From Eubacteriales bacterium (GTDB lineage: Bacteria; Bacillota; Clostridia; Oscillospirales; CAG-272), in assembly GCA_045532805.1 (NCBI GenBank), contig JAZSGQ010000037.1, forward strand, positions 5,904-69,903: a stretch of 64,000 nucleotides of DNA. Reading direction: 5' to 3'. The notes below the pieces were generated by a model that was not told the origin of the DNA, did no database searches, and worked only from the letters and a program-made list of their open reading frames with translations. The position numbers and the translations under genes are program-made. Positions 26,247 through 52,464 of the stretch are shown here, one piece after another (position 1 is the stretch's first letter; every line of letters starts with the position of its first letter).

Positions 26247-26247
26247 C

Positions 26248-26678: not shown

Positions 26679-26702
26679 ATTAGATGCTCGCAAGCACCGT
26701 TC

Positions 26703-27258: not shown

Positions 27259-27384
27259 AAAAGCCACAAGGATAATTTCTTGTGGCTTTTTCTTAAAAAT
27301 TGAGACAAGGTGAGACTAACTGATACTGTTTGAGACTGATATCTATAGTATAATATACCTACCAAAGACAAAGGAGGAATATAA

Positions 27385-27936
27385 ATGTCTTTTATAGAAA
27401 AGCTTTTGGAATTTTTTATGCCATGGAAAAGCTCCAAATGGGTGATGTGGAAAGCTTGCCTTGATTTAAAAACATGCGTAGAATGTAAAGAATTACATGG
27501 CAAAATCTTTCCTACAGAGGATGTTGGAAAAATGGTTCGGTGGCCTATGCATCAGTATTGTCGTTGCACTCTTGACGGAATGGACGTTCTTCCTGCCGGA
27601 TATGCAACTCAAGACGGACTAAACGGCGCTGACTATTGGCTCACACACAAAGGAAAATTGCCTGAAAACTATCTGACAAAAAAGGAAGCAAGAAAAATTG
27701 GTTGGAAAGATAAAAAGGGTAATTTGGCAGATGTTGCAAATGGTAAAATAATCGGCGGTGATGTTTATCAAAACAAAGATGGAAGATTACCACAGGCAAA
27801 TGGGCGTATATGGTACGAAGCAGATATTAATTACACGTCCGGATATCGTGGAACCGAACGTATTTTGTATTCTAACGATGGATTGGTTTTTGTAACATAC
27901 GACCATTACCAAACATTTTATGAAATTTCAGATTAA
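27385..27936 (+). CDS. MuF-motif / barnase-family ribonuclease toxin
   Basis: N-terminal W..C.D..TC.EC..LHGKIF....P.H..CRC (Phage_Mu_F core). C-terminal half colinear with barnase (YLTKKEARKIGW..KGNLADV..GKIIGGDVYQNKDGRLP....WYEADINY.SGYRG.ERILYSNDGL...TYDHYQTF). Confidence 0.75.
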   Translation: MSFIEKLLEFFMPWKSSKWVMWKACLDLKTCVECKELHGKIFPTEDVGKMVRWPMHQYCRCTLDGMDVLPAGYATQDGLNGADYWLTHKGKLPENYLTKKEARKIGWKDKKGNLADVANGKIIGGDVYQNKDGRLPQANGRIWYEADINYTSGYRGTERILYSNDGLVFVTYDHYQTFYEISD

Positions 27937-27947
27937 GGAGTAAGAAT

Positions 27948-28274
27948 ATGTATCAATTTAAGGAACTGTATACATTAGACTTTTCAAAGGTTAATTATAT
28001 AAATGAAGTCCATCAAATAATCAAAGATGAACTTGATTTTCCTGATTATTATGGTATGAATTGGTCTGCTTTTTGGGATTGCTTGACAGATATGGTAGGT
28101 GATCCTATTCATATTGAAATTGTCGGTATGGAAACGGTACAGCGTAAATTTCCTCGCCATGCACAAATCATGTTAGAAACATTAAAGGATTTGAAGCATT
28201 TGGATGATGACGATTACAAAGATCAAATAAGAATAGAGATTGTCATAGGCGAAGCACGATATGAAATTAGCTAA
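27948..28274 (+). CDS. barstar-family ribonuclease inhibitor
   Basis: 108 aa, LDFPDYYGMNWSAFWDCLTD motif typical of barstar; 11 nt after the toxin gene. Confidence 0.8.
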   Translation: MYQFKELYTLDFSKVNYINEVHQIIKDELDFPDYYGMNWSAFWDCLTDMVGDPIHIEIVGMETVQRKFPRHAQIMLETLKDLKHLDDDDYKDQIRIEIVIGEARYEIS

Positions 28275-28278
28275 ACAA

Positions 28279-28862
28279 CTATTTTGTTGCTTGAAATTTC
28301 AATATTACATTTTCATGCCACCCCGATTTCTGCGTATTCTTAAACGCCTTATCGGTGGCGAGGTAGTTAATGATGCTCTGCTTTGAGATGTAGTACTTGC
28401 CCATTATGGCGACTGCGTATATGTATTTTCTCTGCACGTACCGAAGGATTGTTCTTCGGTGGTAACCTGTCAGCTCGGCGACCTCGTCCACGGTGAGTGT
28501 ATCGGGTACGGCAGAAAGAAGATCTTCGAGCATTTCCTTGAACCGCGCTCGCTCCTTGCCTCGGAGCTTATAATTCGTATCATCAAAATAACCCCCACAG
28601 TCCGAGTCAGGCGACTCGGTTCTGCGAGGGTTATTTGTCTTTTTGGCGTTGAAAATACCGACGGGGATTTCTTTCCGCTTCTCGCGGTCACTCTTTGCCA
28701 TGTAGGCGAGAACGTCCTCCTTTCTGATAGAATATTTGTGCGTTGGCGTGTTGCGAATCTCGCACGGAATAATGCCATTCTGCAGCATCCACGCCGCCTT
28801 GCGTTTGCTGATGTGGAGCATCTTAACAAGCAGAAAAGAATAATGGTTGTAAGTTTTTTCAT
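28279..28862 (-). pseudogene. double-HTH (excisionase/MerR-like) DNA-binding gene with a frameshift just after its start codon
   Basis: Two HTH units (LLVKMLHISKRKAAWMLQNGIIP; LTVDEVAELTGYHRRTILRYV). The only RBS-backed ATG (28862, AAGGAG) is out of frame by one nt across an A6 run (28854-28859). Confidence 0.55.
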
Positions 28863-28889
28863 GTTGTTTCTCCTTTACCAATAGGGGAT

Positions 28890-29277
28890 TTATATTTTAC
28901 TTTCAAGATATGTAAGCATATTCTTTATAACACCGTCTGCTATGGTTTTCCAATCGAACCCTTCGACGAATTTGATTGCTTCGTCGATCTTCTTTCTCGG
29001 AATCTCATAGAGAAGAAAGGTGTTTTCAAGGAATGCTCTGACTTTTCTGTCCATCGTGAAGTAAATTCCGCAAGATCTTGTCATATAGTTACGCATGATG
29101 CCTGCCGAAGCAAGCTCCTTGTCGTAAAACTCTCCCTGCGTGTAGTCGGTATATTTCTCTTTGAATATATCTGCGAGGATGAGCGTTATCTTCTCGTAGA
29201 TGATATTCGATGAAACTGTTGCGAATAGGAAAGCGAGTACAGTTCTCTCATGTGATAGGCGGGGTAAACACCGTCAG
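28890..29277 (-). pseudogene. startless ORF fragment, unknown function
   Basis: Open frame of about 129 codons whose only start codon is the internal ATG at 29096; its upstream part overlaps the 3' end of the MmcQ-like gene in another frame. Confidence 0.3.
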
Positions 29278-29506
29278 CCACACCAAAAGATCCATACATC
29301 TCTGTCGGTAATTTCAGATTAACAACGCCGATCACCTCGTCGCTGTCAAACCCAAACTTACGCCGTGAAACCCTCATCTCAAGCGCATACCACTTGCGAT
29401 TATCCGCGTGCCTCAGCACCGCCGTCTCAACATCCTCGTCAAACGGATAGTCCGGCGATGTGCCGTATGTATCAAGGCAACATTCAAGAAATTCTTGTTT
29501 TGTCAT
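29186..29506 (-). CDS. MmcQ/YjbR-family protein, C-terminally replaced
   Basis: TYGTSPDYPFDED..AVLRH..NRKWYAL......LG......V.NLK...........G..PAYHM matches the YjbR family, but the expected NK.HW..I.LDG continuation is absent. Confidence 0.55.
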   Translation of the reverse strand: MTKQEFLECCLDTYGTSPDYPFDEDVETAVLRHADNRKWYALEMRVSRRKFGFDSDEVIGVVNLKLPTEMYGSFGVADGVYPAYHMRELYSLSYSQQFHRISSTRR

Positions 29507-29724
29507 CGCCGAATCTCCTTTGCCACTTTTATAGATTGACTTTACCACATTTTCGGCACAAAGTCAACGGTTTGAAAACAATACGGCGCAAAAAGGTGTC
29601 AACCGCATCAAAGCGGCGACGTATCGAGCGCTATGGATCCGCCTTTTCTCCTCAAATAACGCGCACTCGTTGACTGTTTCGTGCTTTTGTGCTATACTAC
29701 TAATAACGAAAGGAGCGTGATCGA

Positions 29725-30138
29725 ATGACGGCAAGAAGAAAAGGCGTGCTGGCGGGAGCGGCGGTAACGGGCGCGGCGCTGGCAATTTGCCTTGCGATCG
29801 TGTTATGGCCGAAACCCGAGGCAAATGCCGCGGAATTGCCTTTGTACGACCCCGCAGACGTGGCTTGGGGCGACACCACGCTCTATTTTGAGGCCACGGT
29901 GCTGGAAGTGGGCGAGGAGCAATTGTTGGTGGCCCCCCTGGAAGGCACAAGTGCACAAATGGCGTTTGGCGAAGTGTTGGTGAACACCACGATGGTAAAC
30001 GGCGAGCGCGTGGGGGGCTTTGAGGAAGGACAGGTCATCGGCGTTCTCTTTGACGGAAAAGTCGCCATGTCCAACCCCGCACAGGTGCTGTCGGTATACG
30101 GATTTTTCCGTACGGAAACCGAACACAACGATCAATAA
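29725..30138 (+). CDS. membrane-anchored/secreted small protein, unknown function
   Basis: 137 aa with N-terminal TM/signal helix; TTGACT-17-TATACT promoter at 29670-29698. Confidence 0.45.
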   Translation: MTARRKGVLAGAAVTGAALAICLAIVLWPKPEANAAELPLYDPADVAWGDTTLYFEATVLEVGEEQLLVAPLEGTSAQMAFGEVLVNTTMVNGERVGGFEEGQVIGVLFDGKVAMSNPAQVLSVYGFFRTETEHNDQ

Positions 30139-36740: not shown

Positions 36741-36914
36741 ACCGAGCACGCGGCGCAACGACGCTCTGCGCGTTTTGGCAAAGACGGATTCCTCTGTCAA
36801 AGAAAAAGCGCGCAGAGCGAGGCGCACCGGAAGCACTCGGGCGACGGCGTACTTGCGTACGCCGAGGTCGAGTGCGTGGAGCAACGACGCTATGCGCGTT
36901 TTTTCAAAGACAGA

Positions 36915-36953
36915 TTATTTGCTTGCTTCCTCAATAGCAACTGCCACGGCAAC
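36915..36953 (-). repeat. decayed copy of the last 12 codons of the GGGtGRT gene (old att remnant)
   Basis: Minus strand reads VAVAVAIEEASK-stop, matching the C-terminus of the gene at 52371-53369; homology ends at a TGA just upstream. Confidence 0.6.
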
Positions 36954-37008: not shown

Positions 37009-37102
37009 TTACTTAGAAGCTTCCTCGATAGCGACCGCTACTGCTACCGTCATACCGACCATGGGGTTGTTGCCTGCGCCGATCAGACCCATCATCTCAA
37101 CG
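37009..37102 (-). repeat. left junction repeat: displaced 3' end (30 codons plus stop) of the GGGtGRT gene
   Basis: Gapless alignment to 52371-52464. The last 48 bp (37055-37102) are identical; the first 46 nt carry 11 mismatches. Encodes VEMMGLIGAGNNPMVGMTVAVAVAIEEASK-stop. Confidence 0.85.
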
Positions 37103-37327
37103 CTATCAGAGCTTTAGCCGAGCTTCGGGGTAAAAGCCTCGGCCTGCAAGCTTGCGGTATAAGCCTTTCGCGACATTTGCATTGCAAAATCCTGTTACGC
37201 TGAACACATCGTTTTCAGTTTTGCCGAATGCATTATATCGTGTTTTGACGTGTTCGCGAATGGGCAATTTATAAAGATGTGCCTATTTTGAATTTTTCTA
37301 AATGTTGCTATTAAGATAAGATGGTTA

Positions 37328-38809
37328 TTATGAAATCATTCGACCGAGTGTCGAAATAAACGAACTGAAGTTTTCATATTCGCAAATGTCTTCGCAAAGA
37401 TATTGAATAAATCGTTCCGTAGATATTCCAATGTCATTTAGATTTGAACAGATCATTTTATATAGTTTTTTTCCGTTGTTATCCTTACCTTCTGGATAAT
37501 TCTGTTTGTAGTCTAAAATAATATCATATAGCGATCTATTTGTGAAATATTTGTCTCCAATCAATTTGATAAATGTTGCATCATTTTCGGTGATTAACTT
37601 CTTGTGCAAATACTTTTCTACACTTTTGATGGGCAAATAGGTGTACAATGAAAGTTGCAGTTCTGCAGCTTTGTCATCCCCTTTAGATTTGACGTCGCCA
37701 TCTAAGATGCTTATAACACGTTTTCCCATTCCAAGCAATCCGCTTCTATGAATATCATTGTGCAACTTTAGTGTTTGAGCCCAATCACCGCTAGGAACTA
37801 CGTGCCACAATCTACTTTTACATATATTATTAGTGCGGATAATTCTTTCAACTACTGCTTTAGCTAACTCATCTTCAACAAGAATTATAAAATCATATCC
37901 GTTAGGCACATACAGATTTCTAATTGCATAGTTGGGGTAGCATGGATTTAGTGATGTAATAGTTCCGTTTACATTCTCAATCATAAATATGTTTTGAGGA
38001 GAAATACGGTTAATGATTTCTGTTGAATGTGTAGAGAAAATAACTATCATGTTGATGTTATTCAGCATCTGGGTAAAAAGAGTTACCAAACGATCTATGG
38101 CAGCAGGATGAAGCGCTAGTTCTGCTTCGTCAATGAGAAAAAGCAAAGGCGCTGTTTCTGTATATCGATTTCGCTCTGTAAGATTATTAATAAAGTCAAT
38201 TAGGGAAATTAGCATACTTTCCCCACTACTCATTGTATATTGGCTAGTATACCTATCACCACATTTCAAGAAATACGGAATTCCTCTAAAACCGTGTTGT
38301 GTAGCGATAGGCTTGCTTTTAACTTTGTAGAGATCCTTGTAATGATTTTTATCTCCGTGCAAAATGTAGCTTAATGTTTCTATAACAAAAGGATCCGCCG
38401 CTCTAATTAACGATGTAAAATCATCTTTTTGAAGGAACTCTTGAACAAGATTATAATCATAAAAACGAGAGCCAAAAAATATACTTCCCTCGTAAAAACC
38501 CCTATAATAATTCTTCGTGTGTCTATGACCATTTAATCGAGAAGCACAATCCCATACGCCATTTGAAACATACCAATGGTCTATTTGCGAATCTACATTT
38601 AAATCAATAACAGAGCCTTCGGTAAAATCACAAGATTGAAAACCTCGTGTAGAAGAAGGCTTAACCAGCAAAGACATTGCTGACATTAATGTGCTTTTGC
38701 CACATCCGTTCTCACCCACTATTGCGTAAAGCCCTTTTTCAAGTGGAATTTCAAATTCACATTGTTTTATGTTTTTTAAGTCTTTTATGGACAAAATTAA
38801 ATCACTCAT
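37328..38809 (-). CDS. ABC-type ATPase fused to a Toprim-like nuclease domain (OLD / PARIS / GajA-like architecture)
   Basis: Walker A GENGCGKST, ABC signature MSSGES, Walker B LLFLIDEAELALHP, H-loop FSTHS. The C-terminal part has DFIILVEDELAK (Toprim Glu) and ISILDGDV (DxD). Start at ATG 38809 behind GGAGGAAAT. Confidence 0.6.
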   Translation of the reverse strand: MSDLILSIKDLKNIKQCEFEIPLEKGLYAIVGENGCGKSTLMSAMSLLVKPSSTRGFQSCDFTEGSVIDLNVDSQIDHWYVSNGVWDCASRLNGHRHTKNYYRGFYEGSIFFGSRFYDYNLVQEFLQKDDFTSLIRAADPFVIETLSYILHGDKNHYKDLYKVKSKPIATQHGFRGIPYFLKCGDRYTSQYTMSSGESMLISLIDFINNLTERNRYTETAPLLFLIDEAELALHPAAIDRLVTLFTQMLNNINMIVIFSTHSTEIINRISPQNIFMIENVNGTITSLNPCYPNYAIRNLYVPNGYDFIILVEDELAKAVVERIIRTNNICKSRLWHVVPSGDWAQTLKLHNDIHRSGLLGMGKRVISILDGDVKSKGDDKAAELQLSLYTYLPIKSVEKYLHKKLITENDATFIKLIGDKYFTNRSLYDIILDYKQNYPEGKDNNGKKLYKMICSNLNDIGISTERFIQYLCEDICEYENFSSFISTLGRMIS

Positions 38810-39009
38810 ATTTCCTCCATAGAAAATTTCGTTTTTGAATTGTATCTCATTATAACATAAAACGACATAATTTTCAATGTAAACATATAAGATTATCAAC
38901 TGAAAGATTACAAACAATAACATTAATTTCTTTTAACATCTGCTAAATTATACGAACGGCAATATTTTGTGCTCTGTTGTTGTTCTGAAATTTACAGATA
39001 GAAAGAAGA

Positions 39010-39396
39010 ATGATTATGGCAAATGTTGAAAACAAAGAAATTACAAGCAAACCTATTAATAAGACTACAGAGACATTGATCAAAGAACTAGAAACCATGA
39101 GCGACGCAGGGCTTCATGATCTATTTATGTTTTTCTACAAGCTCAATTGTCAGCATGGTAATATGATCTACAATGACAAGTTCAATGAGTTCCTTGAGGC
39201 GTTTAACAGCAATCCATTCAAGCATCATGAGGACAAGGTTTTCAGAAAGGAACTGATAGAAAATCTAACCAAATATTGCTTTGATCACATGAGTTTGTTA
39301 ACGGCCACACTACTGCTCAAAAAGAAGTTCACAATTGATGAAGTAATCAATAACTATTACGCTAGTGTAGATGCTTTTGGATACGACGTATTCTGA
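39010..39396 (+). CDS. hypothetical protein
   Basis: 128-aa ORF followed by a strong terminator hairpin (39451-39484); no recognisable motif. Confidence 0.4.
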   Translation: MIMANVENKEITSKPINKTTETLIKELETMSDAGLHDLFMFFYKLNCQHGNMIYNDKFNEFLEAFNSNPFKHHEDKVFRKELIENLTKYCFDHMSLLTATLLLKKKFTIDEVINNYYASVDAFGYDVF

Positions 39397-39485
39397 TTGC
39401 CAGACAATGTATTGATAGCAAAAAATATTGATACGTTATCTTATAAATGAAAAGCTGATGATCATTTCGACCATCAGCTTTTTTA

Positions 39486-39514
39486 CAACTGTCAGCTATT
39501 GTATATATTATAAT
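39486..39514. repeat. promoter-like direct repeat, copy 1 (CAACTGTCAGCTATTGTATATATTATAAT)
   Basis: Near-identical to 40914-40940; lies 15 nt beyond the stop of the 451-aa gene. Confidence 0.6.
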
Positions 39515-39528
39515 TTATTTCTATCCTT

Positions 39529-40884
39529 TCATCTCCTATCCCAATAATCTCTCAAGAACGCCTCGAAATTCAATTTCACACCACTTGACACCATGTATTT
39601 AAACAATTCATCGTCTTCAGCACCGGTCGAATAGAAGCAATCGTAGACCTGCCAGACCCTATGCCCCGAAGTCAAAAGATCGTACAATGTCATCAGATAC
39701 ACACATGATTCAACATAAAAGATATCGCTACCATAAAGCTTTCCGCCCTCAGCCTTGATGATCGCCTCTCTAAACGCTGTCATCGTATTGCAAACGTCCT
39801 GTCTATCTATGTTTTCCTGATCCATCGACAGCCACGTATGATGCCCGACCTGCTTCTCCGTGGAGTCAAAATAAGCTCGCATATGAAGCTTTTTAATGGC
39901 CTCACGCATTTGGCTACCGAACGCTTTTCCTGGCTCCATAGCTTGAAATATCAGCCCGTAGATATCTTTCGACTCGTCTATCCAATGCCCCGAATTCAAA
40001 GATAACGTCATTCGTGGAACAGAAGCATTAATGTCTTTTTCTAACGTAAAGCCATATGCTTTCAAAAGCTCTGCACGCTTGTCTTTTTTAAGACTGATCA
40101 TTGCATTCGTCGCCCTGATACCAATGCCACTTACATATAAACCATTGTCCGCCCAAGTGAAATTAGGCTGAAAACGAATACGAAACTCCGGATAATCTCT
40201 GTAATAAGTCTCATTGATCTCATTTGCCTTCATAATATGAAATCTAAGTCCCGGATAATTTTCATACAAACATAATGTAAGTTGTTTCTCGAACTCAGCC
40301 TTACTAAGTTCGACCGGTCTGATCAATCTAAGCCTTGACGCAAAACGCACTTTGGATCGATCTATTTCTGTATGAACTCCTTGAAGCTCGTCCATATCAT
40401 AGACCTTGTTTTGTACGATATACATCTCAATGTCACGTGCTGCGCAATATGCCTTGATCTTCTCTTCGTTCTCTTTATAATATCGATACGTCTTGCTCTT
40501 ATTATCTTTTTCGTAATAAGCCCCAAACTGATACCGATCACATTCAACGCTGATCAAACCGATCTCGATCATATAAGCGATCGCCCTGGAAACGCCCTTT
40601 TCATTGTCCCAGATAGCAAGATTTTCTTTATTCGTTACGCTGATCGGCATGATCGTACAACCAGTTTTAAACCGTTTATGCTTGACAGAATCGATAAATG
40701 CCAATACCTTGCTCAGTTTTGTTCTAAGCTTCGCCTCTGCCCCTTTTGCCTTGCTCTCTGTAATGTCCAGCACCGGTGGTACATAATGGTCTGCCCTAAT
40801 TGGTTCCCAAGTGTCTTTGACAATACTAAAATCATAGTTTTTACGATCCATCAGTCTGCTTGCGATCTCTTCTAACGTAATCAC
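39529..40884 (-). CDS. hypothetical 451-aa protein (possible element replication/maintenance function)
   Basis: Largest ORF of the unknown block; start placed at GTG 40884, 6 nt after GGAGGTG; no catalytic motif recognised by eye. Confidence 0.4.
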   Translation of the reverse strand: MITLEEIASRLMDRKNYDFSIVKDTWEPIRADHYVPPVLDITESKAKGAEAKLRTKLSKVLAFIDSVKHKRFKTGCTIMPISVTNKENLAIWDNEKGVSRAIAYMIEIGLISVECDRYQFGAYYEKDNKSKTYRYYKENEEKIKAYCAARDIEMYIVQNKVYDMDELQGVHTEIDRSKVRFASRLRLIRPVELSKAEFEKQLTLCLYENYPGLRFHIMKANEINETYYRDYPEFRIRFQPNFTWADNGLYVSGIGIRATNAMISLKKDKRAELLKAYGFTLEKDINASVPRMTLSLNSGHWIDESKDIYGLIFQAMEPGKAFGSQMREAIKKLHMRAYFDSTEKQVGHHTWLSMDQENIDRQDVCNTMTAFREAIIKAEGGKLYGSDIFYVESCVYLMTLYDLLTSGHRVWQVYDCFYSTGAEDDELFKYMVSSGVKLNFEAFLRDYWDRR

Positions 40885-40913
40885 AAGAACCACCTCCAAG
40901 TCTTTAAATTTTG

Positions 40914-40940
40914 CAACTGTCAACTATTGTATATTATAAT
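40914..40940. repeat. promoter-like direct repeat, copy 2 (CAACTGTCAACTATTGTATATTATAAT)
   Basis: With the preceding TTG it forms TTGCAA - 18 nt - TATAAT on the plus strand (towards the 41102 gene); sits about 30 nt upstream of the divergent 451-aa gene. Confidence 0.55.
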
Positions 40941-41101
40941 AATATTTCTCTTGCTTTCTCTTCTTCCACTCTTTTGCTCCAAAGCTTTTGCCGCAGCAAA
41001 AATCATTGTTTTTTCAAAAAATTGCGCTAAATTAAATGAAGACATGAAAAAGACATAGCCATAGGCAGGCCAAAATATACTCAAATACGAAAGGCAAAAA
41101 C

Positions 41102-41599
41102 ATGAAAGAAAAAAGATTCGCACGCATTGCTCGTCTTACCGGACGACCTCAGGATAAAGCACTTTTCAAAACTCATTTTCAAAAGCTAACCAAGAAGCAA
41201 CGCAAGTTCTTTTGGGCCATTTTTATTCATTGTTGGGCAAGCAGCAAGGCCTTGATCGACAAGCAGAACTTCTTCAATTTGTGGTGCGAATTAAATTATC
41301 TCTGCCATGAACTTGACGAAAGCTTCCCGGATCCATACGACGACCGCGAAGCAATAAGATCTTATTGTCATGCACACCCTTATTACTTCATAGATATTCT
41401 GACGCCGAAAATGATCGCAAATCTCTTTGCCGAATACTGCTACAGCGAGAGCTTAGATTTTTTAACCACTCTCGCACAAAAACTGCATGAAGATGATTTA
41501 AAAGCAGCATATGCTTATGCAAACGAAGCTCTTGGCCTAGACGAAAACATAGACGAAAGCATTGTCGAGATAAAAGAACATGTTGAATCGTTTTTATAA
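41102..41599 (+). CDS. hypothetical protein, paralogous to the C-terminal half of the 41666-42433 product
   Basis: 165 aa; colinear blocks QKLTKKQRKFFWAIFIHC / LWCELNYLCHEL / HPYYFIDILTPKMIA shared with the neighbouring gene. Confidence 0.45.
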   Translation: MKEKRFARIARLTGRPQDKALFKTHFQKLTKKQRKFFWAIFIHCWASSKALIDKQNFFNLWCELNYLCHELDESFPDPYDDREAIRSYCHAHPYYFIDILTPKMIANLFAEYCYSESLDFLTTLAQKLHEDDLKAAYAYANEALGLDENIDESIVEIKEHVESFL

Positions 41600-41665
41600 T
41601 TTCTCAAAACAGAGCTACAATAAGTCCAATATTGTAGCTCTGTTTTTTATATTCTTCTGATAGAA

Positions 41666-42433
41666 TTAAGCCGACGTGCGCCCTCTGAGTTTAATATTAA
41701 GATAGTTAAGGGTTGCCTCATAACCACACTTATAGAACTTCTTTGCAGTTGAAACCGCCAAGGCAATATCAAGATCGATCGCATCACAAAGCTCGACAGC
41801 AATGGTTTTCTGATCAAGCCACTTGAAGAAGTAAAGGGGATCTCTGCTGAGGAAATCCTGCCCCGCCTTAGTATCAAATGCCATAGGCACATCACAACCC
41901 AACTCACGACATTTATCCGCCATTGTCTTCCAAAGAGCCGCGGAACTAGTCTCACTAATAAACAGACCATACTGTCGCCTGCAATGAGTCACAAGGCGAA
42001 TAAATACCTTAAGTTGGTTCTCATCAAATTTCTGCAAGCAGGAAACGAGTTTGCCCTTCCCAGTAGGAATCATAACTCTTGTTCTACGAGCGACCTGTTC
42101 CTTAAAATATACTTCATCGAACGATTCCTTGATTAGTTTCATCAGTTCCAAGCTACAGCGCCAACGAACAAGCCATTCAGGTTTATCTTTGAGATCTTTT
42201 TTAATTTCCCAGAAGATCTTTTCAAACCTCTTAATAAACAGAATCTTATCCTTTCCGGGTCTGATGTAATAATCATAGTTGTAAAGTGCTACTTCGACGT
42301 CCTCATGTCTGAAATTTGTGTCGATGTTTTCAAGTCTGTAAATCTTCTCAATCGTATTGATAATCTCTTCGGTGCTAAGATTAAAGCCTTCACCGTATGC
42401 CTTAGCCATGCTATTATTCATATTACACTTCAT
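41666..42433 (-). CDS. hypothetical protein (paralog family)
   Basis: 255 aa from ATG 42433 (GAAAGGA RBS); blocks QKFDENQLKVFIRLVTHC / LWKTMADKCREL / DPLYFFKWLDQKTIA. Confidence 0.45.
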   Translation of the reverse strand: MKCNMNNSMAKAYGEGFNLSTEEIINTIEKIYRLENIDTNFRHEDVEVALYNYDYYIRPGKDKILFIKRFEKIFWEIKKDLKDKPEWLVRWRCSLELMKLIKESFDEVYFKEQVARRTRVMIPTGKGKLVSCLQKFDENQLKVFIRLVTHCRRQYGLFISETSSAALWKTMADKCRELGCDVPMAFDTKAGQDFLSRDPLYFFKWLDQKTIAVELCDAIDLDIALAVSTAKKFYKCGYEATLNYLNIKLRGRTSA

Positions 42434-42554
42434 TTCTTGTTCCTTTCTGCCGTGATATTCGGCTCTCAAATTATTTTTGATTTATACGATGCTTTCGTAT
42501 TGAGACTATAACGAAAACACAATCGCCATAGCCTCAATACACTCTATGTGATAA

Positions 42555-43070
42555 TTAGTACTCAATCGATCCACAAGACGGGTGTACCGGCACCCTGAAC
42601 TTATCATTCATAGGCTCAAATCCCGCGTATCTGCTGTGATTCTCGACGTGAGTAGAAGGCGTCTCCTGTCGCTCAGGCACCTGTTCCTGCTGGTTACGGC
42701 TGATGCAGAAGGCAACCTTAGCAATCGTACGCCCCTTATATTCGCCCTGAACGACGTACACAGCCCCCTCTTTATCATACCAATAAGAATGGTCTGTTCT
42801 GTCCTTGTCCTGAATATCGAAAGAGTCAAAGAATTCTCCAAGCAGCTGATTTGTGCGAACCTTGTTGTCATGGTTATACCAGATATAGTGCCTCAGCGTG
42901 TGGTTATGACCGATGACATTAAGCCAAATTTCAAGACCTTCCGTCCCGTTATATGCCTTTGTCTGATAAGCTTCGATGATTCTCACTCTGTACTTGCCCT
43001 CAGGAAGAAGATTGGATTTTCCAGTTTTGGTTACATCATAATCGTTAGCATTGTAATCCCAATTAATCAT
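42555..43070 (-). CDS. hypothetical protein, DUF669-like phage/element protein
   Basis: 171 aa; N-terminal LPEGKYRVRIIEAY....NGTEGLEIWLNV pattern resembles phage DUF669 proteins as remembered; weak. Confidence 0.35.
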   Translation of the reverse strand: MINWDYNANDYDVTKTGKSNLLPEGKYRVRIIEAYQTKAYNGTEGLEIWLNVIGHNHTLRHYIWYNHDNKVRTNQLLGEFFDSFDIQDKDRTDHSYWYDKEGAVYVVQGEYKGRTIAKVAFCISRNQQEQVPERQETPSTHVENHSRYAGFEPMNDKFRVPVHPSCGSIEY

Positions 43071-43338
43071 AATAAATATACTCCTTTAAAGTTGAATTTT
43101 GAATTAGTAGTTTTGGTTGTTTTAGCGTCAACCGCACGCTTTGTGATCTTATACACATCAACTCCTTAAATTAATAATTTCAGCAAGCCCAAATTTATCG
43201 AAGCACTTAGAGAAATATATATAATACCCCCTCTCTCTTTTTCTCTAAACATCCTCAAAATTCACATCTCACTATTTTATAATACAGTCCGCTCAAATCA
43301 AATTTTGAGCTTTTTGATTTTTTCAGAATAATATTCAA

Positions 43339-43740
43339 TTAGGCAGCAGTGATTGATATCACTGCTGCAGGAAGAACATAGTTCTTCTCATTGGTAAAAA
43401 CATTATTTGTATTGACAACATACTTATGAAGTACATAGTGGTTGATGGATGTTTTAAACATTACGGTGATCTGATCGACATCGTTCGGTGTGATCGATTC
43501 GTGTTTATCAACAACAATACCGATAACACGAGTAAAATTCATGTACTGACCATTGTTTTTGATAAGGTCAACATTGGTTTCGATAACGTCATTCAACACT
43601 TTGACATACTCTTCAACGTCTTTTTCTTCAATCTTAATAAGACGATTCTTGTTAACGTTGTGAAGATAGAAAGTGTACACACTACGGATCTGGTAGCTCG
43701 AGAGAGTGGAACGAGAATCATAATTTTTGATAGTAGACAT
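43339..43740 (-). CDS. hypothetical protein
   Basis: 133-aa ORF bracketed by copies of a 43-bp promoter/operator-like repeat. Confidence 0.4.
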   Translation of the reverse strand: MSTIKNYDSRSTLSSYQIRSVYTFYLHNVNKNRLIKIEEKDVEEYVKVLNDVIETNVDLIKNNGQYMNFTRVIGIVVDKHESITPNDVDQITVMFKTSINHYVLHKYVVNTNNVFTNEKNYVLPAAVISITAA

Positions 43741-44028
43741 AGAAATAACTCCTTTTTAATTTATTTGGCATTATATGATACAGTACGCTCAAAACGAATT
43801 TTGGCGTTTTTCAAAAATTTTTTTTGAGATTAAATAGCAATAAAAAAGCAAGTGGTCTAAATAGCCACTTGCTTACCTATTTATTATGAATTTTGGTATC
43901 AAAACAAACCTTTGCAAACATTGTACTAATTTTGCCTCGAAATCGCTTACAAAAGGCCCGAAACGCGGCATAATGATAGTACAGAAAGAAACTTTAGTTA
44001 GTTTCAATGCTAACGGGAAGGACATCAT

Positions 44029-44727
44029 ATGATTTACGGTTATTGCAGAGTCAGTACTCAGCACCAAAGGCTTGATCGTCAGATTACTAACATTACTGCC
44101 ATTTATCCGAATGCAGTTATCATCAAAGAGTTCTATACAGGCACGACGCAAAACCGACCGCATTGGGAAAGGTTTATGACCCAAGTAAAAAAGGAAGACA
44201 CCATCGTTTTTGATAGTGTCTCCCGAATGGCACGTAACAGCGCCGAAGGATATAAAGATTATAAGATGCTCTACGAGAGGGGCATCAACCTCGTTTTCTT
44301 GAACGAGCCCCTAATCAACACATCCGTTCTAGATGCGACCAAAAGCAAATTGCTAAATATCAGCGTTGAAACGGGCAATGCCGCCGTTGACGATTTCTTT
44401 AAGGGCAACATTGAACTTATCAATAACTTTATTATGGCTCTCGCAGAGGAACAAATTAAAACGGCATTTGCACAGGCTGAAAAAGAAGTCACAGACCTGC
44501 ATTCGCGCATCAGCCAAGGCATCCGAGAGGCCAAGAAGTCTGGGGCTCAAATCGGCTTGCCTAAGGGCTCCACGCTCACGACCAAGAAATCCCTTGCGTG
44601 CAAAGCCATCATCCAAAAGCACTCTAAAGACTTCGGTGGATCACTTGAAGATTCCGACGTCATTAAACTTTGTGGCTGCTCTAGAAATAGTTATTACAAA
44701 TACAAAAGAGACATCAAATCTATTTAA
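44029..44727 (+). CDS. small serine recombinase (resolvase/invertase family)
   Basis: MIYGYCRVSTQHQ..DRQ catalytic-Ser N-terminus, VFDSVSRMARN, C-terminal HTH (CGCSRNSYYKYKR). Confidence 0.85.
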   Translation: MIYGYCRVSTQHQRLDRQITNITAIYPNAVIIKEFYTGTTQNRPHWERFMTQVKKEDTIVFDSVSRMARNSAEGYKDYKMLYERGINLVFLNEPLINTSVLDATKSKLLNISVETGNAAVDDFFKGNIELINNFIMALAEEQIKTAFAQAEKEVTDLHSRISQGIREAKKSGAQIGLPKGSTLTTKKSLACKAIIQKHSKDFGGSLEDSDVIKLCGCSRNSYYKYKRDIKSI

Positions 44728-44737
44728 GGAGACTGCT

Positions 44738-45010
44738 ATGAACAAGGTACTTATCGGTGACAAGATCAAAATCATTCACATGAAAGGCGAACCTCATTAC
44801 AAAGACCGTGAAGATGTAGTCACCCACATCGACGACGCAGGGCAAATTCATGGAACGTGGGGCGGATGTGCTATTATTCCAGAAATAGATAATTTTATCA
44901 TCTTAAACGAGTTCAGGTTAAAAAACCTTAATCTCTTCCAAACTGAAGATCAAACAAGCACCGTACTCGCGTTACGGTGCTTGTTTTTTATTACTCAGCA
45001 AATAAAATAA
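44738..45010 (+). CDS. DUF4314-like small protein
   Basis: GDKIKIIHMKGEP.Y..REDVVTHIDDAGQIHGTWGGCAIIPEIDNF pattern typical of DUF4314 proteins on Firmicutes mobile elements; AAGGAGA RBS. Confidence 0.5.
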   Translation: MNKVLIGDKIKIIHMKGEPHYKDREDVVTHIDDAGQIHGTWGGCAIIPEIDNFIILNEFRLKNLNLFQTEDQTSTVLALRCLFFITQQIK

Positions 45011-45025
45011 CCCTGACATCTTCCC

Positions 45026-46237
45026 TCAAGCATCGTACGAATATACAATGCAGTTGTCGATGTTTTGCTTATTAATAAGAAATTTGGGCTTTCTCGCAGA
45101 ACCATCAGGCTGATGTCCTTGGTTAAACGCAGAAAGAGCTTCGTTCATATTAACGCGGTTAAGTTCAAATATTCTCATCCTTTTAAACTTAACCGAATGT
45201 TTCATGCGCGCAGCATAAGAAATTTCTCCGCCTTCAACATAAGTTTTGCCAATCAAGTTCATACGAGCAATTGCCATTTCGTTTCCTCTTTCCGTATCTT
45301 TGATGGTTTCATGCTCATAGATGATATACCACAGTTTACCAAAACGAGTTATGGCTTCCAGGACGCTTTCTTGATCATTACCTGGAGCAGAGTCATGATC
45401 GATATCACTTGCCTTTAAATCTCCATAGTAATTGTCTTGTCGGAAAAACAAATCGAAATCAAGCATAGAAGAATCTTTTATATTTCCAATGTAAGCCATG
45501 ATCCCCTGGCAATGTTCATTATCAATGAACTGAGCCAATTTGAATTCCAGCAGCCATCCCGGCCACTCAGTCCCCTTCCATTGATACCAATGTCCATCAC
45601 GCATTTCCACGATTGCTTGTCTTGCAGTTATCCAACTGTCGAAAATGAATTCTCCATTGAATTTTCCAAACAATTCAAAGATTTGATTTCCTTGTGCTAT
45701 ACCAAGCAGATAATCCTTGAATTTTCTGCCAATCACCGAGGTAATGTGATTATCGTTTTTATCTCTCTTATGAAAAACGCCATTGGTTACCGCTTGATAA
45801 ATATCATTCGTATATATGTGTGCTGCACTCGAGTTAAGTTTTCTTTCGATGTAGTCTTCGATTTTGAACTCAACAAAAACAACAAGTCCCTGATAATGAT
45901 AAAGCCCAATTAAATGAATACGAGTGTTTGGCATATTCTTGTATTCATTATAAAAATCTTTGTGCCAAGGTTTCAATTGATATCTTTTCTTAAACAATGG
46001 ATGAGGTTTACTTAAATAAGTTATAGCCCCTGCAAGAAAATATTCTGTAATTCCATCATGCTTATAAGAATACAGCGTTTTGGTGCGTTGATACTTTTCA
46101 ATATAACAGTTATCGCCCAAAGCACTTTTAAAAGCACAAAGAATATCTTGAGAACTAGTCAATGGTTGATCATAATCGAGAACCATAGACATATTAGGCA
46201 TGATTTGTTCGCTTTTAGAAACCTGTTCTCGTGCCAT
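45026..46237 (-). CDS. putative type II restriction endonuclease
   Basis: 403-aa ORF 2 nt downstream of the C5-methyltransferase on the same strand; candidate PD-(D/E)xK element FDLFF...YYGDLKAS. Confidence 0.55.
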   Translation of the reverse strand: MAREQVSKSEQIMPNMSMVLDYDQPLTSSQDILCAFKSALGDNCYIEKYQRTKTLYSYKHDGITEYFLAGAITYLSKPHPLFKKRYQLKPWHKDFYNEYKNMPNTRIHLIGLYHYQGLVVFVEFKIEDYIERKLNSSAAHIYTNDIYQAVTNGVFHKRDKNDNHITSVIGRKFKDYLLGIAQGNQIFELFGKFNGEFIFDSWITARQAIVEMRDGHWYQWKGTEWPGWLLEFKLAQFIDNEHCQGIMAYIGNIKDSSMLDFDLFFRQDNYYGDLKASDIDHDSAPGNDQESVLEAITRFGKLWYIIYEHETIKDTERGNEMAIARMNLIGKTYVEGGEISYAARMKHSVKFKRMRIFELNRVNMNEALSAFNQGHQPDGSARKPKFLINKQNIDNCIVYSYDA

Positions 46238-46239
46238 AA

Positions 46240-47406
46240 TTACTTCTCCTCTTTCAAATGAGCAAACAGTTGTTTAGCCAAAAACTCAACACAGTTAACA
46301 TTTACGGCATTTCCAAACTGCTTATATGCTTGGTGATCGTTAGGATTAGGAACAAAGGTATCAGGAAAACTTTGCAATCTTGCTGCTTCTCGAGGTGTCA
46401 AACGACGCTTATATTTAGCAATGATTGGAATCTGCACGATTGCCACCAATGCAGGGAAAGCATCAGGACGCTTAACTCGAATACCAGAAGGTCTAAATTG
46501 CACGAAAGCATCCCAAATAGTATCAATCGACTCGCCTGCCTGCCACTCCATCTTCCTTTCAGTAGGAGTGAAGTCCTGCAAATAGTTCCATTTTTTCAAC
46601 CACTTATCAATAAACTTCTTGTTGTTTAAATAAAGGGCCCTATTCTTATTACAGAAATCTGCTTTCCATTTTGGCAAACCACTGAGATCAGTGGTTGCTC
46701 CAAATTCAAAAGACCAAATAGGGAAACCGATGGTTTTTTCTTTGATGCCCTTATAAAATTCATCCCAACACGTGAGCACTCTTTCTTCGTGTTCACTTAT
46801 GTTATATTTAGCAGGAGCATTTTCCTCGATAATATTTGCATCATAAATACTGACCGAAGACTTTTCCCTTTGCGGCACATCGATTTTCAACTCGCCATCA
46901 TACAAATCTTTACGAATGCCCAAAATATATACTCTCTCACGAAGTTGAGGAATACCCAACTGATGAGGACTCATCATAATAATTTTAATATTGTAGCCCA
47001 GCTCGTCCAGAGCTCCCTTAATAACATGAATCGTATTGCCTTGGTCATGAGAGAGTAAGTTTCGAACATTTTCGAGCAGTATGAATTTAGGTTTGGAGGA
47101 TTCCAGAATTCTAGTAATTTGGAAAAATAACGTTCCCTTTGTTTCATCAGCAAAGCCCATGCGCTTTCCAGCTTTGGAAAAGGCCTGGCACGGAAATCCG
47201 CCACACAACACATCATGATATGGAATTTCCTCATTGCTTATCTCAGTAATGTCGTGTGCCGAATCAATACCATAATTCACTTTATAAGTCTCGATTGCAT
47301 ATTCATCTATTTCAGAAGCAAGAACACATTCGCCACCAAGATTTGTCATTGCTTGATGAAAGCCTCCAATTCCCGCGAACAGATCTATGAATTTAAATTT
47401 TTTCAT
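46240..47406 (-). CDS. dcm: DNA (cytosine-5)-methyltransferase
   Basis: Motif I DLFAGIGGF, IV GFPCQAFS, VI ENV, VIII QLRERV, X GNAV. Confidence 0.9.
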   Translation of the reverse strand: MKKFKFIDLFAGIGGFHQAMTNLGGECVLASEIDEYAIETYKVNYGIDSAHDITEISNEEIPYHDVLCGGFPCQAFSKAGKRMGFADETKGTLFFQITRILESSKPKFILLENVRNLLSHDQGNTIHVIKGALDELGYNIKIIMMSPHQLGIPQLRERVYILGIRKDLYDGELKIDVPQREKSSVSIYDANIIEENAPAKYNISEHEERVLTCWDEFYKGIKEKTIGFPIWSFEFGATTDLSGLPKWKADFCNKNRALYLNNKKFIDKWLKKWNYLQDFTPTERKMEWQAGESIDTIWDAFVQFRPSGIRVKRPDAFPALVAIVQIPIIAKYKRRLTPREAARLQSFPDTFVPNPNDHQAYKQFGNAVNVNCVEFLAKQLFAHLKEEK

Positions 47407-47633
47407 TTTTCGCCTCCAACTTTGTTCATGATGGTATTTCTAATTTCTTCAAAATTAAGATTGTGTTTTTTGCAGAGTTCTTCGATTTGTTTAAGCGCCT
47501 TATAGTTGGGTAATGTTTTGCCTGATTCCCATCTATTCACCGTAGCAAACGTTACCCCAAGTTCTTTTCCAAAAGTTTCTTGGCTCAGCAAAAGATATTG
47601 ACGAAGTTTTTTGATTGCTTCACAAAATTGCAT
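47403..47633 (-). CDS. XRE-family HTH protein, probable R-M controller (C) protein
   Basis: 76 aa, LSQETFGKELGVTFATVNRWESGK HTH; ATGA overlap with the methyltransferase start; palindromic operator over its own -10. Confidence 0.65.
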   Translation of the reverse strand: MQFCEAIKKLRQYLLLSQETFGKELGVTFATVNRWESGKTLPNYKALKQIEELCKKHNLNFEEIRNTIMNKVGGEK

Positions 47634-47651
47634 TTCGCAGCCTCCTAACAT

Positions 47652-47692
47652 TGATATAACATTATTATATCATAGTTAAGACTTTTTTGCAA
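47652..47692 (-). promoter_or_regulatory. promoter plus palindromic operator of the C-M-R operon
   Basis: Minus strand TTGCAA (47687-47692) - 17 nt - TATAAT (47664-47669); inverted repeat TGATATAA-n5-TTATATCA (47652-47672) overlaps the -10. Confidence 0.55.
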
Positions 47693-47803
47693 TCACTATT
47701 TTTAATTTTGCGTCAATTTTAACCATTATTATCTTTATCCGGTTCAGTTGATTTTTTAAGCCTCCTGTGCTATAATTGTCTCACAATAGAGAGGAGGCTA
47801 TAT

Positions 47804-49621
47804 ATGCTCGGATATATTTCTACCATCCAAGACTTTTCAAATACATCTACCGTCGATATTGTTCGGCAGTTATCCCTTATGTATCCTGATGCATCTGCCT
47901 CACAGATACATTCCTGGGAGGTTTTAATCGATGATGTAAAGGCATCTCCCTCCTTTCACAGGATTCCAGGCGCCGCAGTTCTTGCCCTTGAACTTTCACT
48001 TTTTGTTGAAAATATGAGTGTGGATCTTGTGATCGCAGGCTCCACACCGGCAGAAGAAACAATTGCATTTTTGATAGAATCTAAGCAGTGGGGGGATGAC
48101 TACATCCGAGACCATCACTTTAGCAGTTATCGTGAACATGGCGAACTCCTTCATCCCCAGGTTCAAGTACATCATCACTTTTTATCCTTTAGAGATTATA
48201 TCAAGGTCGAGCCTGAAATCACACATATGCTCCCCTTCGTTTATATAAGAAACGCCTCCAACGAGGGGTGCGAACTGATTCGCAAAAGAAATCCCGGCAC
48301 CGCCCCAACAGATATTCCTGTCTTTAACAGTATAAATGATATTTTGGACATTATAGCAGACAATCTCGCCAACACCACCGCACTGTCAGTCCAATCCTTT
48401 AATGAAGCAACCTACTGCCCCTCATTAAGCATTATTGACGCTATGAATGCAATTGTCACTAGAGAACTCCCCTTCATTTTAACTGATGAGCAAGAGCAAG
48501 CATTACTGCAAATACTTGATTTCATCTCCTCCGGCAAGCGCATTATTCAAATCAATGGCGGAGCTGGGAGTGGTAAGACAGCAATCCTATTGAACATCTA
48601 CGTACGTATGCTTCAAAAGAACAATCACTATCTACCGTTGTTCGTTAGTGGTGCTCAAAACACATACCTTTATAAACACTTGTATCCTCAGGTAGCTAGT
48701 TCCTTTAATTTTTCTCTTTCACTAAAAAACACAGTGCAATATTTTAATAATCGTCATTCTGTTATTTTGCTTGATGAGGCCCAACATAATCAAGCAGGAA
48801 TTATATCAGAGTTGTTATCTATTCCCACAACTACAATAATCTTGTGCTATGATGAATGGCAGACGATAAATGCTAACAATGCACTTCCCGAAATTGAGAG
48901 TTTTCGCGCTCGCGATGATTTTGTATCCATCACTCTTAACAACTCTATCCGGTTTAACGGTTCTCAAATGTTTGAGAAAAATGTTAAATCATATCTGACT
49001 TCGGCCCAACTCCCGTCTATTGACACCTCTTACGATTTTAGAGTGTTCTCATCCTTTGAAGATCTAAAGATTCAAACGCTTGATATTATCAAAACTCATC
49101 CAGAATATGAGATTGCACTAATGGGCTTGCTTTCCAGTGATAGTCGTCAAACGGTTAAAAATTCTGAGGGCTTTATGCACACAAACTGGGATAATAAAAC
49201 TGAAGTTGACTGGATTCCTTATATTAAGAAAAAAAACTACTTGGCAAAGAAGCAAGGAAGTTTGTGGCTCGGAACTTGGTGGATGCCGGGATTGGATGTG
49301 GACTATGCTGTTGTTATTGTTGGCAATGACGCTGCAATGACTGATACTGGATTTAAAGGTCGTGCCAGTAATTCAAAAAACTATCAACTAATAATAAGTG
49401 TTGCCGAAGAGTTAGGGCTCCCCGACCGATTAACTAAATCCAATACTCCAAACTATAGAAAAGCGCAAGAAATCCTTGATTATGTATCGTTTATGCCCCT
49501 AGATTTAAAGCAGTCTTTTCACACTCGATTCACCTACTATTTGCGCAATATTTATTATGTTATGATGACACGTGGCAGAAAAGGATGCTTAGTATATTTT
49601 AAAAATCAACCCCAAAAATAA
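47804..49621 (+). CDS. PD-(D/E)xK-like nuclease domain fused to a DUF2075/SF1-type NTPase-helicase
   Basis: N-terminal VDLVIAG...IAFLIESKQW (D...ExK); GGAGSGKTA Walker A, VILLDEAQH Walker B, YYVMMTRGRKGCLVYF (SF1 motif VI-like); TTGATT-17-TATAAT promoter at 47748-47776. Confidence 0.6.
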   Translation: MLGYISTIQDFSNTSTVDIVRQLSLMYPDASASQIHSWEVLIDDVKASPSFHRIPGAAVLALELSLFVENMSVDLVIAGSTPAEETIAFLIESKQWGDDYIRDHHFSSYREHGELLHPQVQVHHHFLSFRDYIKVEPEITHMLPFVYIRNASNEGCELIRKRNPGTAPTDIPVFNSINDILDIIADNLANTTALSVQSFNEATYCPSLSIIDAMNAIVTRELPFILTDEQEQALLQILDFISSGKRIIQINGGAGSGKTAILLNIYVRMLQKNNHYLPLFVSGAQNTYLYKHLYPQVASSFNFSLSLKNTVQYFNNRHSVILLDEAQHNQAGIISELLSIPTTTIILCYDEWQTINANNALPEIESFRARDDFVSITLNNSIRFNGSQMFEKNVKSYLTSAQLPSIDTSYDFRVFSSFEDLKIQTLDIIKTHPEYEIALMGLLSSDSRQTVKNSEGFMHTNWDNKTEVDWIPYIKKKNYLAKKQGSLWLGTWWMPGLDVDYAVVIVGNDAAMTDTGFKGRASNSKNYQLIISVAEELGLPDRLTKSNTPNYRKAQEILDYVSFMPLDLKQSFHTRFTYYLRNIYYVMMTRGRKGCLVYFKNQPQK

Positions 49622-52370: not shown

Positions 52371-52464
52371 TTACTTGCAAGCTTCTTCGATCGCAACTGC
52401 AACAGCCACGGTCATGCCGACCATGGGGTTGTTGCCTGCGCCGATCAGACCCATCATCTCAACG
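52371..52464 (-). repeat. right junction repeat (functional 3' end of the GGGtGRT gene)
   Basis: 52417-52464 is identical to 37055-37102; 52371-52416 is a diverged replacement of the gene terminus. Confidence 0.85.

Follow-up and report, generated by a model that had tools for sequence, protein, structure and literature searches.

The 64,000-nucleotide stretch of contig JAZSGQ010000037.1 studied here (the window; all positions are counted from its first letter) comes from an Eubacteriales bacterium of the CAG-272 lineage and harbors a 15.4-kb integrative element. The last gene of this element, on the minus strand at 37328..38809, codes for a 493-residue protein that combines an ATP-binding cassette (ABC) ATPase with a predicted Toprim-type nuclease domain. 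We favor, at a probability of about 0.6, the interpretation that this gene specifies an anti-phage defence enzyme of the OLD/HEC-04 kind, one that works as a single, self-sufficient protein and is carried as the terminal cargo of the element. By genomic context the protein is a Class 1 OLD and by its sequence it falls in no named family: the clade to which it belongs is best read as a sister to the retron type I-B effectors and to HEC-04/IbfA, and as a member of neither. The protein's architecture and its probable mode of action have precedents, whereas its clade has yet to be characterised. Of the OLD-type systems, those made of one ATPase-Toprim protein (Class 1 OLD, HEC-04 and IbfA) are the least understood, with triggers and substrates that are largely unknown, and to our knowledge neither the Pfam domain models nor the PADLOC system rules flag the present clade as a defence gene.

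The open reading frame (ORF) is a real gene and not a chance ORF, as both the uniform length of its homologues and the action of purifying selection attest. A search of 5.8 billion proteins recovered more than 1000 homologues, and nearly all of the 120 listed are 483-534 residues long. When compared with relatives of 58-78% amino acid identity, synonymous sites are saturated (proportion of synonymous differences, pS, 0.78-0.86) and the nonsynonymous proportion (pN) is 0.11-0.28; a pN/pS of ~0.13-0.25 points to purifying selection. The C-terminal half is under tighter constraint than the ATPase half in four of five comparisons, the two being about equal in the 58%-identical relative. The minus-strand ORF spans 37328..38923, or 531 residues when counted from the first ATG, and ends in the stop codon at 37328-37330; the 493-residue version opens at the ATG at 38807-38809. 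Read directly from the sequence, this ATG is preceded by GGAGGAAAT, which contains a Shine-Dalgarno element GGAGG (38814..38818, minus strand) 4 nucleotides 5' of it. A promoter-like site, found as a consensus match (11 of 12 positions), consists of TTGAAA, a 17-nucleotide spacer and a TG-extended TATAAT (38849..38877, minus strand); this candidate extended -10 promoter, read from 38877 to 38849, lies ~40 nucleotides upstream of the ATG and within the longer 531-residue frame. In the family alignment the homologues start at the MSD... position, as in the 493-residue reading. Since the promoter falls inside the longer frame, the Shine-Dalgarno element fits and the homologues begin at MSD..., 38809 is the likely start of the gene. 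The start at 38923 was dropped on the same grounds. The position of the promoter-like site also argues for an independent transcription unit. The coding sequence as delimited here draws on the ORF list, the lengths of homologues, the selection estimates and the AlphaFold model.

The N-terminal half (residues 1-283; 37961..38809, minus strand) is, by its motifs, an ABC ATPase with a complete catalytic set, of the OLD/PtuA/AriA branch. Pfam searches with the full protein recover AAA_15 (3.7e-17), AAA_21 and SMC_N (1.9e-11), all in this half, and Pfam together with Foldseek delimits an ABC/SMC-type domain with a β-rich/helical insert at about residues 60-190. The following signatures are present: the Walker A motif GENGCGKST (residues 32-40 with K38; 38690..38716), whose pattern GxNGxGK[ST] is kept across the superfamily; the ABC signature MSSGES (residues 193-198; 38216..38233), in which M193-S-S-G-E197 is invariant in the family alignment; the Walker B and D-loop segment LLFLIDEAELALHP (residues 222-235 with D227, E228 and H234; 38105..38146), delimited from the family alignments; and the H-loop FSTHS (residues 258-262 with H261; 38024..38038), which is invariant and takes the form [ST][ST]HS in the superfamily. 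The S[ST]GE signature is found in all relatives except the three most distant ones (24-28% identity), where it reads SLGE or SFGE. The Walker B/D-loop pattern hhhhDExE[LI]ALHP is retained in nearly all relatives down to 24% identity, and the DExELxLHP pattern is common to the 493-residue protein and P2 Old in an hhalign alignment. A first-pass annotation, made by reading the letters of the window, had credited one 493-residue protein with a complete ABC-type motif set and six quoted motifs, the above four along with ILVEDE and LDGDV; all six are present, three of them verified base by base, and the Pfam matches bear out the ATPase. The full-length AlphaFold model (pLDDT, for predicted local distance difference test, 86.9; predicted template modeling score 0.75) retrieves PtuA, the Thermus OLD 6p74, GajA, Rad50 and SMC heads at ~1e-10 in whole-chain Foldseek searches, which are dominated by the ATPase head and do not discriminate among these relatives. 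The ATPase is followed by a family-specific linker motif NPCYPNYA (residues 288-295; 37925..37948, minus strand), the C290 of which is invariant in the superfamily.

The C-terminal half is likely (roughly three chances in four) to be a Toprim-type two-metal nuclease domain, a prediction based on four independent lines of evidence: the register of motifs and secondary structure in the models, the presence of the OLD catalytic set, profile alignment to P2 Old, and matches to two ATPase-Toprim models. As to the first, the Toprim domain is defined by a four-stranded parallel sheet with a glutamate after β-1, a glycine after β-2 and a DxD motif after β-3 (PMC6755086). Assignment of secondary structure by DSSP to the AlphaFold models, namely the full-length one and a domain-only one (pLDDT 85.6), delineates an α/β core at residues 304-400 (37610..37900, minus strand), in which strands 307-311, 335-339, 364-369 and 389-391 alternate with helices. 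The ILVEDE motif (residues 309-314; 37868..37885) places E312 and D313 at the end of β-1; G341 follows β-2; and LDGDV (residues 369-373; 37691..37705) places the DxD motif, D370/D372, at the end of β-3. These residues are invariant in an alignment that extends to 16% identity over the C-terminal half (24% overall), and the register of the Toprim definition is fully matched in both models. Past β-4, the segment PIKSVEKY (residues 393-400; 37610..37633) opens the first of the subsequent helices and presents an invariant P393 and the residues S396-x-E398 and K399, which 90% or more of the relatives retain. The remainder folds as a six-helix domain (residues 401-493; 37331..37609, minus strand; helices 397-407, 411-421, 427-437, 447-459, 464-478 and 482-492), the fourth helix of which is opened by K447 (37469-37471), invariant in the superfamily.

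Turning to the catalytic set, that of the Thermus OLD comprises E377, D381, D431, D433, S478 and E480 (PMC7049728), and that of the Burkholderia OLD comprises E400, E404, D455, D457, T506, E508 and K562, with a five-helix bundle and a terminal helix (PMC6755086). In our protein the putative second-metal residues D313 and S396-x-E398, along with the basic K447, occur in the order of D381/S478/E480 of the former and of E404/T506/E508/K562 of the latter. We accordingly infer from position that S396/E398 are the counterparts of the metal-B ligands (S478/E480 in Thermus, T506/E508 in Burkholderia) and, by analogy, that K447 is the counterpart of the catalytic K562 of the Class 2 OLD enzymes. An hhalign comparison of the family with P2 Old reaches a probability of 98.3% (E=2e-14), is collinear to the C-terminus and pairs LVEDE with LVEGKTE, PSGDW with VDGKG and DGD with DCD. 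Finally, the isolated C-terminal domain matches exactly two meaningful PADLOC models, ATPase-Toprim_I-B (8.5e-16) and HEC-04 (8.6e-5), both of which represent ATPase-Toprim fusions in the literature (PMC7736814; bioRxiv 10.1101/2024.01.29.577857).

Profile scores define the position of the clade. The best full-length match of the protein is to the PADLOC model PDLC02914, ATPase-Toprim_I-B (2.7e-47, 160 bits, residues 4-475 aligned with positions 3-426 of the 443 in the model), followed by the HEC-04 model (1.8e-21, 74 bits), which covers residues 142-412 only. The AriA, AbiLi, Old, GajA and PtuA models align with the ATPase half alone at ~1e-16 to 1e-18, those for Old, GajA and PARIS covering just parts of it at 55-65 bits. 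For calibration we scored nine relatives: proteins encoded by plasmids of E. coli, Citrobacter and Acetobacter, by a Pf phage of Pseudomonas and by gut clostridia, together with a distant homologue of 24% identity, no true retron I-B effector being in this panel. On PDLC02914 they score 108-149 bits and on HEC-04 58-87 bits, while P2 Old attains 712 bits on its own model. It is on these bit scores that we read the clade as a sister and not as a member of either family. Among other collections, the 493-residue protein reaches no NCBIfam model, and in PHROGs it has a full-length match to phrog_3940 (8e-56), a family of unknown function. The first-pass annotation had likened the protein to OLD, GajA and PARIS and had proposed either a Class 1 OLD-type defence or a compact, undescribed variant. 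The likeness holds for the ATPase plus Toprim-like architecture and fails for profile membership; the Class 1 assignment holds for a single gene in a variable neighborhood and fails for the Old profile; and the undescribed variant agrees with the sister position of the clade. The closest relatives, i.e. the PDLC02914 and HEC-04 families, had not figured in that annotation.

Among characterized systems HEC-04 offers the closest functional precedent. As a single gene HEC-04 (Hma-embedded candidate 04; Payne et al.) has been shown by experiment to protect against T4, T5 and further coliphages, and protection is lost in the K62A and E319A/D375A/D377A mutants (bioRxiv 10.1101/2024.01.29.577857); the protein IbfA, from IncI1 plasmids, is homologous to it (PMC12111858). 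Like these, our protein is a single polypeptide in the range of ~490-520 residues with an ABC ATPase and, by prediction, a Toprim at the C-terminus, carried by mobile elements or located within defence loci, and the features of the HEC-04 type (both domains in one chain, the Walker A lysine and the E/DxD site) are present and invariant in the clade. The triad E319/D375/D377 of HEC-04 has a near-equal spacing to E312/D370/D372; since the HEC-04 match has an alignment block that begins at residue 306 against model position 313, E312 would fall on HEC-04 position 319. In contrast, the score of 74 bits with partial cover of the model, and the range of 58-87 bits across the clade, indicate a different clade. 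On our own reading IbfA is probably still more distant, because a tblastn search of plasmids at E<=1e-10 gave only 58 records, among which there was no widespread IncI1 set.

The retron I-B1 effectors likewise couple an ABC ATPase to a Toprim domain, with motif IV of the form 'EDxxL' and motif V of the form 'DxD', whereas I-B2 effectors and the classical OLD proteins have 'EGxxE' (Mestre et al., PMC7736814). The invariant E312-D313 of our clade is an ED-type motif IV, and the sizes are comparable (443 model positions against 493 residues). From the motif, the size and the fact that P2 Old matches the other I-B model, PDLC02915, the model PDLC02914 probably represents I-B1 (Class 3B) and not I-B2. 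Compared to the Class 1 OLD proteins (P2 Old, the Thermus scotoductus protein of 6P74 and the Vibrio cholerae OLD), the shared features are a single gene, an ABC ATPase with a C-terminal Toprim (predicted in our protein), and the S-x-E pair, here a putative metal-B site. The differences are several: the PADLOC Old model covers only residues 198-281 at 62 bits; motif IV is ED in the clade and EGxxE in Class 1; the ABC signature is conserved in the clade and degenerate in Class 1, and the six-helix C-terminal domain has no equivalent in the Thermus OLD (PMC7049728); and the Class 1 proteins are longer (528-586 residues), there being no obvious inserted dimerisation domain in ours. GajA, of Class 2, shares the ABC ATPase, the Toprim (again predicted in ours) and a helical C-terminal domain with a lysine (K562 in the Burkholderia OLD against K447). 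It differs in being ~90-100 residues longer, with an extra Class 2 Toprim insert that is missing here, and its models score at most 57 bits and cover the ATPase part alone.

In the context-based OLD scheme, which sorts classes by gene neighborhood, a single gene is Class 1 (PMC10568477, PMC12392090), and the neighborhoods of the clade speak for a gene that stands alone. We surveyed the window, 33 metagenome or genome loci with a full-length relative and six plasmid or phage records, and in none of these is there a reverse transcriptase (RT), non-coding RNA (ncRNA), GajB or DUF4435 partner; the gene is in each case solitary and at the margin of a mobile element. No recurrent neighbor emerged across the 33 loci, either on clustering neighboring ORFs or in a Pfam census of 124 flanking proteins: the commonest families (integrases, helix-turn-helix (HTH) proteins, subunits of type I restriction-modification (R-M) systems and guaA) account for at most 4 proteins in the census and at most 6 loci by clustering. 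The census also contains no GajB-like helicase and no RVT family. In the window itself, domain and PADLOC searches place no UvrD-like GajB helicase and no DUF4435 gene next to the gene, as the first-pass annotation had stated, and its description of the gene as stand-alone extends to every related locus examined. The island has a single helicase-like gene, of the SLFN-g3/Nhi type and at a distance of 9 kb, whose similarity to GajB is limited to the P-loop.

The relatives are scattered across mobile elements of unrelated phyla, among them elements of gut Firmicutes, conjugative plasmids of E. coli and a Pf prophage of Pseudomonas. One is the terminal cargo beside the integrase of a small satellite-like element with primase and capsid genes. 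In E. coli, Citrobacter and Acetobacter, relatives of 28-36% identity are solitary genes on plasmids that are conjugative or mobilisable (L057-L061), including p666 of the enterotoxigenic E. coli strain H10407 (L057), where they adjoin RelE/ParE, other toxin-antitoxin modules and transposons; 583-residue E. coli forms have a long Cys-rich insert past the DxD motif. A relative of 24% identity and 508 residues, with VEDEYAK...LDSD, is translationally packed between a 1041-residue type III-like restriction helicase and an 883-residue methylase (L043, 2860-10084), a layout that equals the 'Hma-embedded' arrangement in which HEC-04 was found. In the Pseudomonas phage PfAC13 (OR863246; L056) a 37%-identical relative is the last gene (8452-9963), beside the repressor, and is annotated as a 'putative AbiEii toxin'. 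Its authors called it an incomplete AbiE system, and the same variable slot holds Gabija, Kiwa, ShosTA, Avs or IetAS in other Pf phages (PMC11878078). The AbiEii label is probably a mis-annotation driven by the name of Pfam AAA_21.

We infer nuclease activity, the roles of the metal ligands, ATP coupling, substrate and defence function from the features above, and they suggest the following mode of action. The ABC head (K38, SSGE, D227-E228, H234 and H261) would form ATP-sandwich dimers and act as a sensor or switch. A phage-derived cue may alter the nucleotide or oligomeric state of the ATPase, and the altered state would license the Toprim-like two-metal nuclease, with metal A held by E312, D370 and D372, metal B by D313, S396 and E398, and K447 of the helical tail assisting. 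Cleavage of nucleic acid by this nuclease would then stop phage replication or abort the infection. Both halves of the protein would be needed, as in HEC-04 and P2 Old. By analogy with the OLD enzymes, DNA is our preferred default for the substrate. An RNA target is a live alternative, because PARIS is sister to the 3b retron effectors and its AriB cuts tRNA.

The latter consideration leads to the alternative that fares best, though we consider it improbable: that the protein is a fused PARIS-like system (OLD Class 4-like), in which a phage anti-restriction protein would be sensed by the ATPase, and host tRNA cut by the Toprim domain acting as an RNase in the manner of AriB, with translational arrest and not DNA damage as the outcome. 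PARIS too pairs an ABC ATPase of the AAA_15/AAA_21 type with a Toprim effector, often in prophages or satellites; the AriA models match our ATPase at 2e-18; and the type II R-M system in the same island is a defence of the kind whose inhibitors trigger PARIS. Fused AriA-AriB forms exist (PMC12392090), and in the OLD phylogeny Class 4 (PARIS) is nested within Class 3 as the sister of subgroup 3b (PMC12796447), i.e. the branch of retron I-B1, and the PADLOC model presumed to represent that branch is the one on which our protein scores best. However, no AriB or DUF4435 (PF14491) model, and no OLD Toprim model either, matches the C-terminal domain at E<=10, and the AriA models span just part of the ATPase. 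When searched against 1.84 billion representatives, a profile of the C-terminal domain retrieved just 265 clusters, defined at 50% identity, and in every full-length match the domain occupies about residues 275-500 of a protein of ~485-525 residues: it never occurs as a separate protein, nor in a split or RT-fused architecture. The single 493-residue chain also contrasts with the separate AriA (~55 kDa) and AriB (~35 kDa).

A number of results weigh against the OLD/HEC-04-like defence enzyme that we favor, most of them concerning the C-terminal domain. On Pfam, neither the isolated domain nor 32 divergent versions of it match Toprim, OLD-like_TOPRIM or DUF4435 (a match of one of the 32 to DUF4435, at E=0.11, is at noise level). 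Profiles of the domain have no sequence match in the PDB, and a full-length profile finds ATPase heads only. Foldseek searches with the isolated domain against the PDB gave nothing significant (best E=0.015), the top matches being generic α/β folds (REC, lumazine synthase and EIIA-type) with no OLD, GajA or AriB Toprim among the top 50. Against BFVD there was again nothing significant (best E=0.003), with about 8 of the top 50 weak matches being Toprim domains (DnaG, twinkle or T5) or RloB-like. The C-terminal domain alone aligns with P2 Old in the right register at a marginal E=0.04-0.07. With both the retron I-B and the HEC-04 model the clade stays well short of member-level scores. Lastly, an expression search located the sequence in DNA metagenome runs only, with no RNA run. 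The Toprim call of the first-pass annotation, made from ILVEDE and LDGDV, thus gains a wider set of motifs and their register and receives no independent support from fold searches; the comparison that it had outlined finds AAA_15/AAA_21, no DUF4435 or Toprim_OLD, and structural matches to GajA and OLD via the ATPase head only. Measured against the condition that this annotation had set for its refutation, a C-terminal domain placed outside the Toprim fold, the Toprim call is neither overturned nor confirmed.

These fold and profile results can also be taken to favor a C-terminal domain that is not a nuclease but a generic Rossmann or REC-like module for regulation or interaction, leaving an ATPase with an unlinked effector or a role in maintenance of the element. 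We regard this as unlikely. The conserved residues are an acidic set, a serine and a lysine, and both their order and the structural elements that bear them are those of the active site in OLD; two models that the literature describes as Toprim are matched by the domain in their C-terminal part; and no conserved partner gene was found. The Toprim is itself a four-stranded Rossmann-like fold, such that generic α/β matches are to be expected. Moreover, the Toprim half of P2 Old itself (its C-terminal 259 residues, in a phmmer search) matches no PDB chain at E<=10, though three OLD Toprim structures are deposited. Hence, silence at the sequence level is expected for this fold and cannot exclude it.

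It is very unlikely that the gene is the orphan of a type I-B retron, an effector parted from its RT and ncRNA (which would be lost or located elsewhere) and so inactive or dependent on multicopy single-stranded DNA (msDNA) in trans. Such a descent would account for the wide margin by which PDLC02914 is the best match, near end-to-end, and for the 'ED' motif IV. On the other hand, Pfam finds no RVT domain among the island ORFs, a crude scan for RT motifs was negative in the window and in 54 loci, and Rfam detects no retron ncRNA family in the window, a search that would miss novel ncRNAs; the related plasmid and phage contexts are also free of an RT. The range of 108-160 bits over all relatives suits a sister clade, and a gene with its own promoter-like site and strong purifying selection is not readily seen as a remnant.

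A different link to retrons deserves mention as a tentative proposal that we would sooner doubt than accept: the clade might be the autonomous, retron-free counterpart of the I-B1 effectors, a lineage captured by retrons that added the RT and msDNA as a 'guard', and its ED-type Toprim may cut RNA (tRNA) and not DNA. Septu (PtuAB) stands in such a relationship, as an autonomous counterpart, to the type I-A retrons. A tested representative would fill the missing branch between the retron I-B effectors, HEC-04 and PARIS, and would help to reveal whether the effectors of retrons arose from autonomous defence proteins. Recognition of the clade would also correct a recurrent mis-annotation in censuses of defence systems, of which the 'AbiEii toxin' of one paper is an instance.

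A housekeeping RecF/SbcC/SMC-like ATPase of DNA repair, as might be read from the SMC_N match (1.9e-11) and from weak TIGR00611 recF and SbcC-like matches on the P-loop region, is most improbable: the gene is sporadic, occurs on mobile elements of unrelated phyla and lies here in a low-GC island flanked by attachment (att) repeats with 1-10x depth against hundreds-fold in the flanks, it has neither a coiled coil nor an SbcD or RecO/R partner, and the NCBIfam housekeeping models remain far below their cut-offs, in keeping with the view of the first-pass annotation, which had named a RecF/SbcC-like identity as the outcome that would overturn its proposal.

The island that carries the gene occupies 37103-52464 and has a GC content of 35-40% against a background of ~57%. 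It is bounded by 94-nucleotide direct repeats, the left (37009..37102) being 88% identical to the right (52371..52464) with a perfect 3' core; the right copy is the 3' end of a host gene (52371-53369, minus strand). The ATPase-Toprim gene is the last gene of the island, 226 nucleotides inside the left repeat, and a tyrosine integrase gene is found at the far end, just inside the right one (51267-52268, minus strand), in agreement with the earlier placement of the gene at the distal end of an element. The difference in depth, observed in four gut metagenomes relative to the flanking gene, fits an accessory mobile element. One low-depth metagenome contig links both att copies, passing from 37080 to 52450 with 7 letters between; this may be the empty integration site, the reading being ambiguous because of the repeat itself. 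Just outside the left att there are also two imperfect direct repeats of ~40 nucleotides (GCAACGACGCTnTGCGCGTTTT..CAAAGAC) at ~36753-36795 and ~36878-36920, seen by eye and not reported by the repeat search at the seed used.

The other genes of the island include a type II R-M module composed of an HTH controller (47403-47651), a C5 methyltransferase (46240-47406) and a restriction endonuclease (45026-46237); an SLFN-g3/Nhi-AbiO-like helicase (47804-49621); a PIN_12 protein of 460 residues (49721-51103); a serine recombinase (44029-44727); and a DUF669/single-stranded DNA-binding-like protein (42555-43070). Five further ORFs have no match in Pfam, PADLOC or PHROGs: 39010-39396 (plus strand; the divergent neighbor of the ATPase-Toprim gene, 128 residues), 39529-40923 (minus), 41102-41599 (plus), 41666-42469 (minus) and 43339-43740 (minus), one of the five being 464 residues long. 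Presumably they constitute the replication and regulation module of the element. Elsewhere in the window, a second low-GC patch (41-46% GC, ~26000-30000) beside a tRNA gene (27170-27255) may be another integrated element, and Rfam identifies at 58 bits the aptamer of a lysine riboswitch (RF00168) at 14012-14188 on the minus strand.

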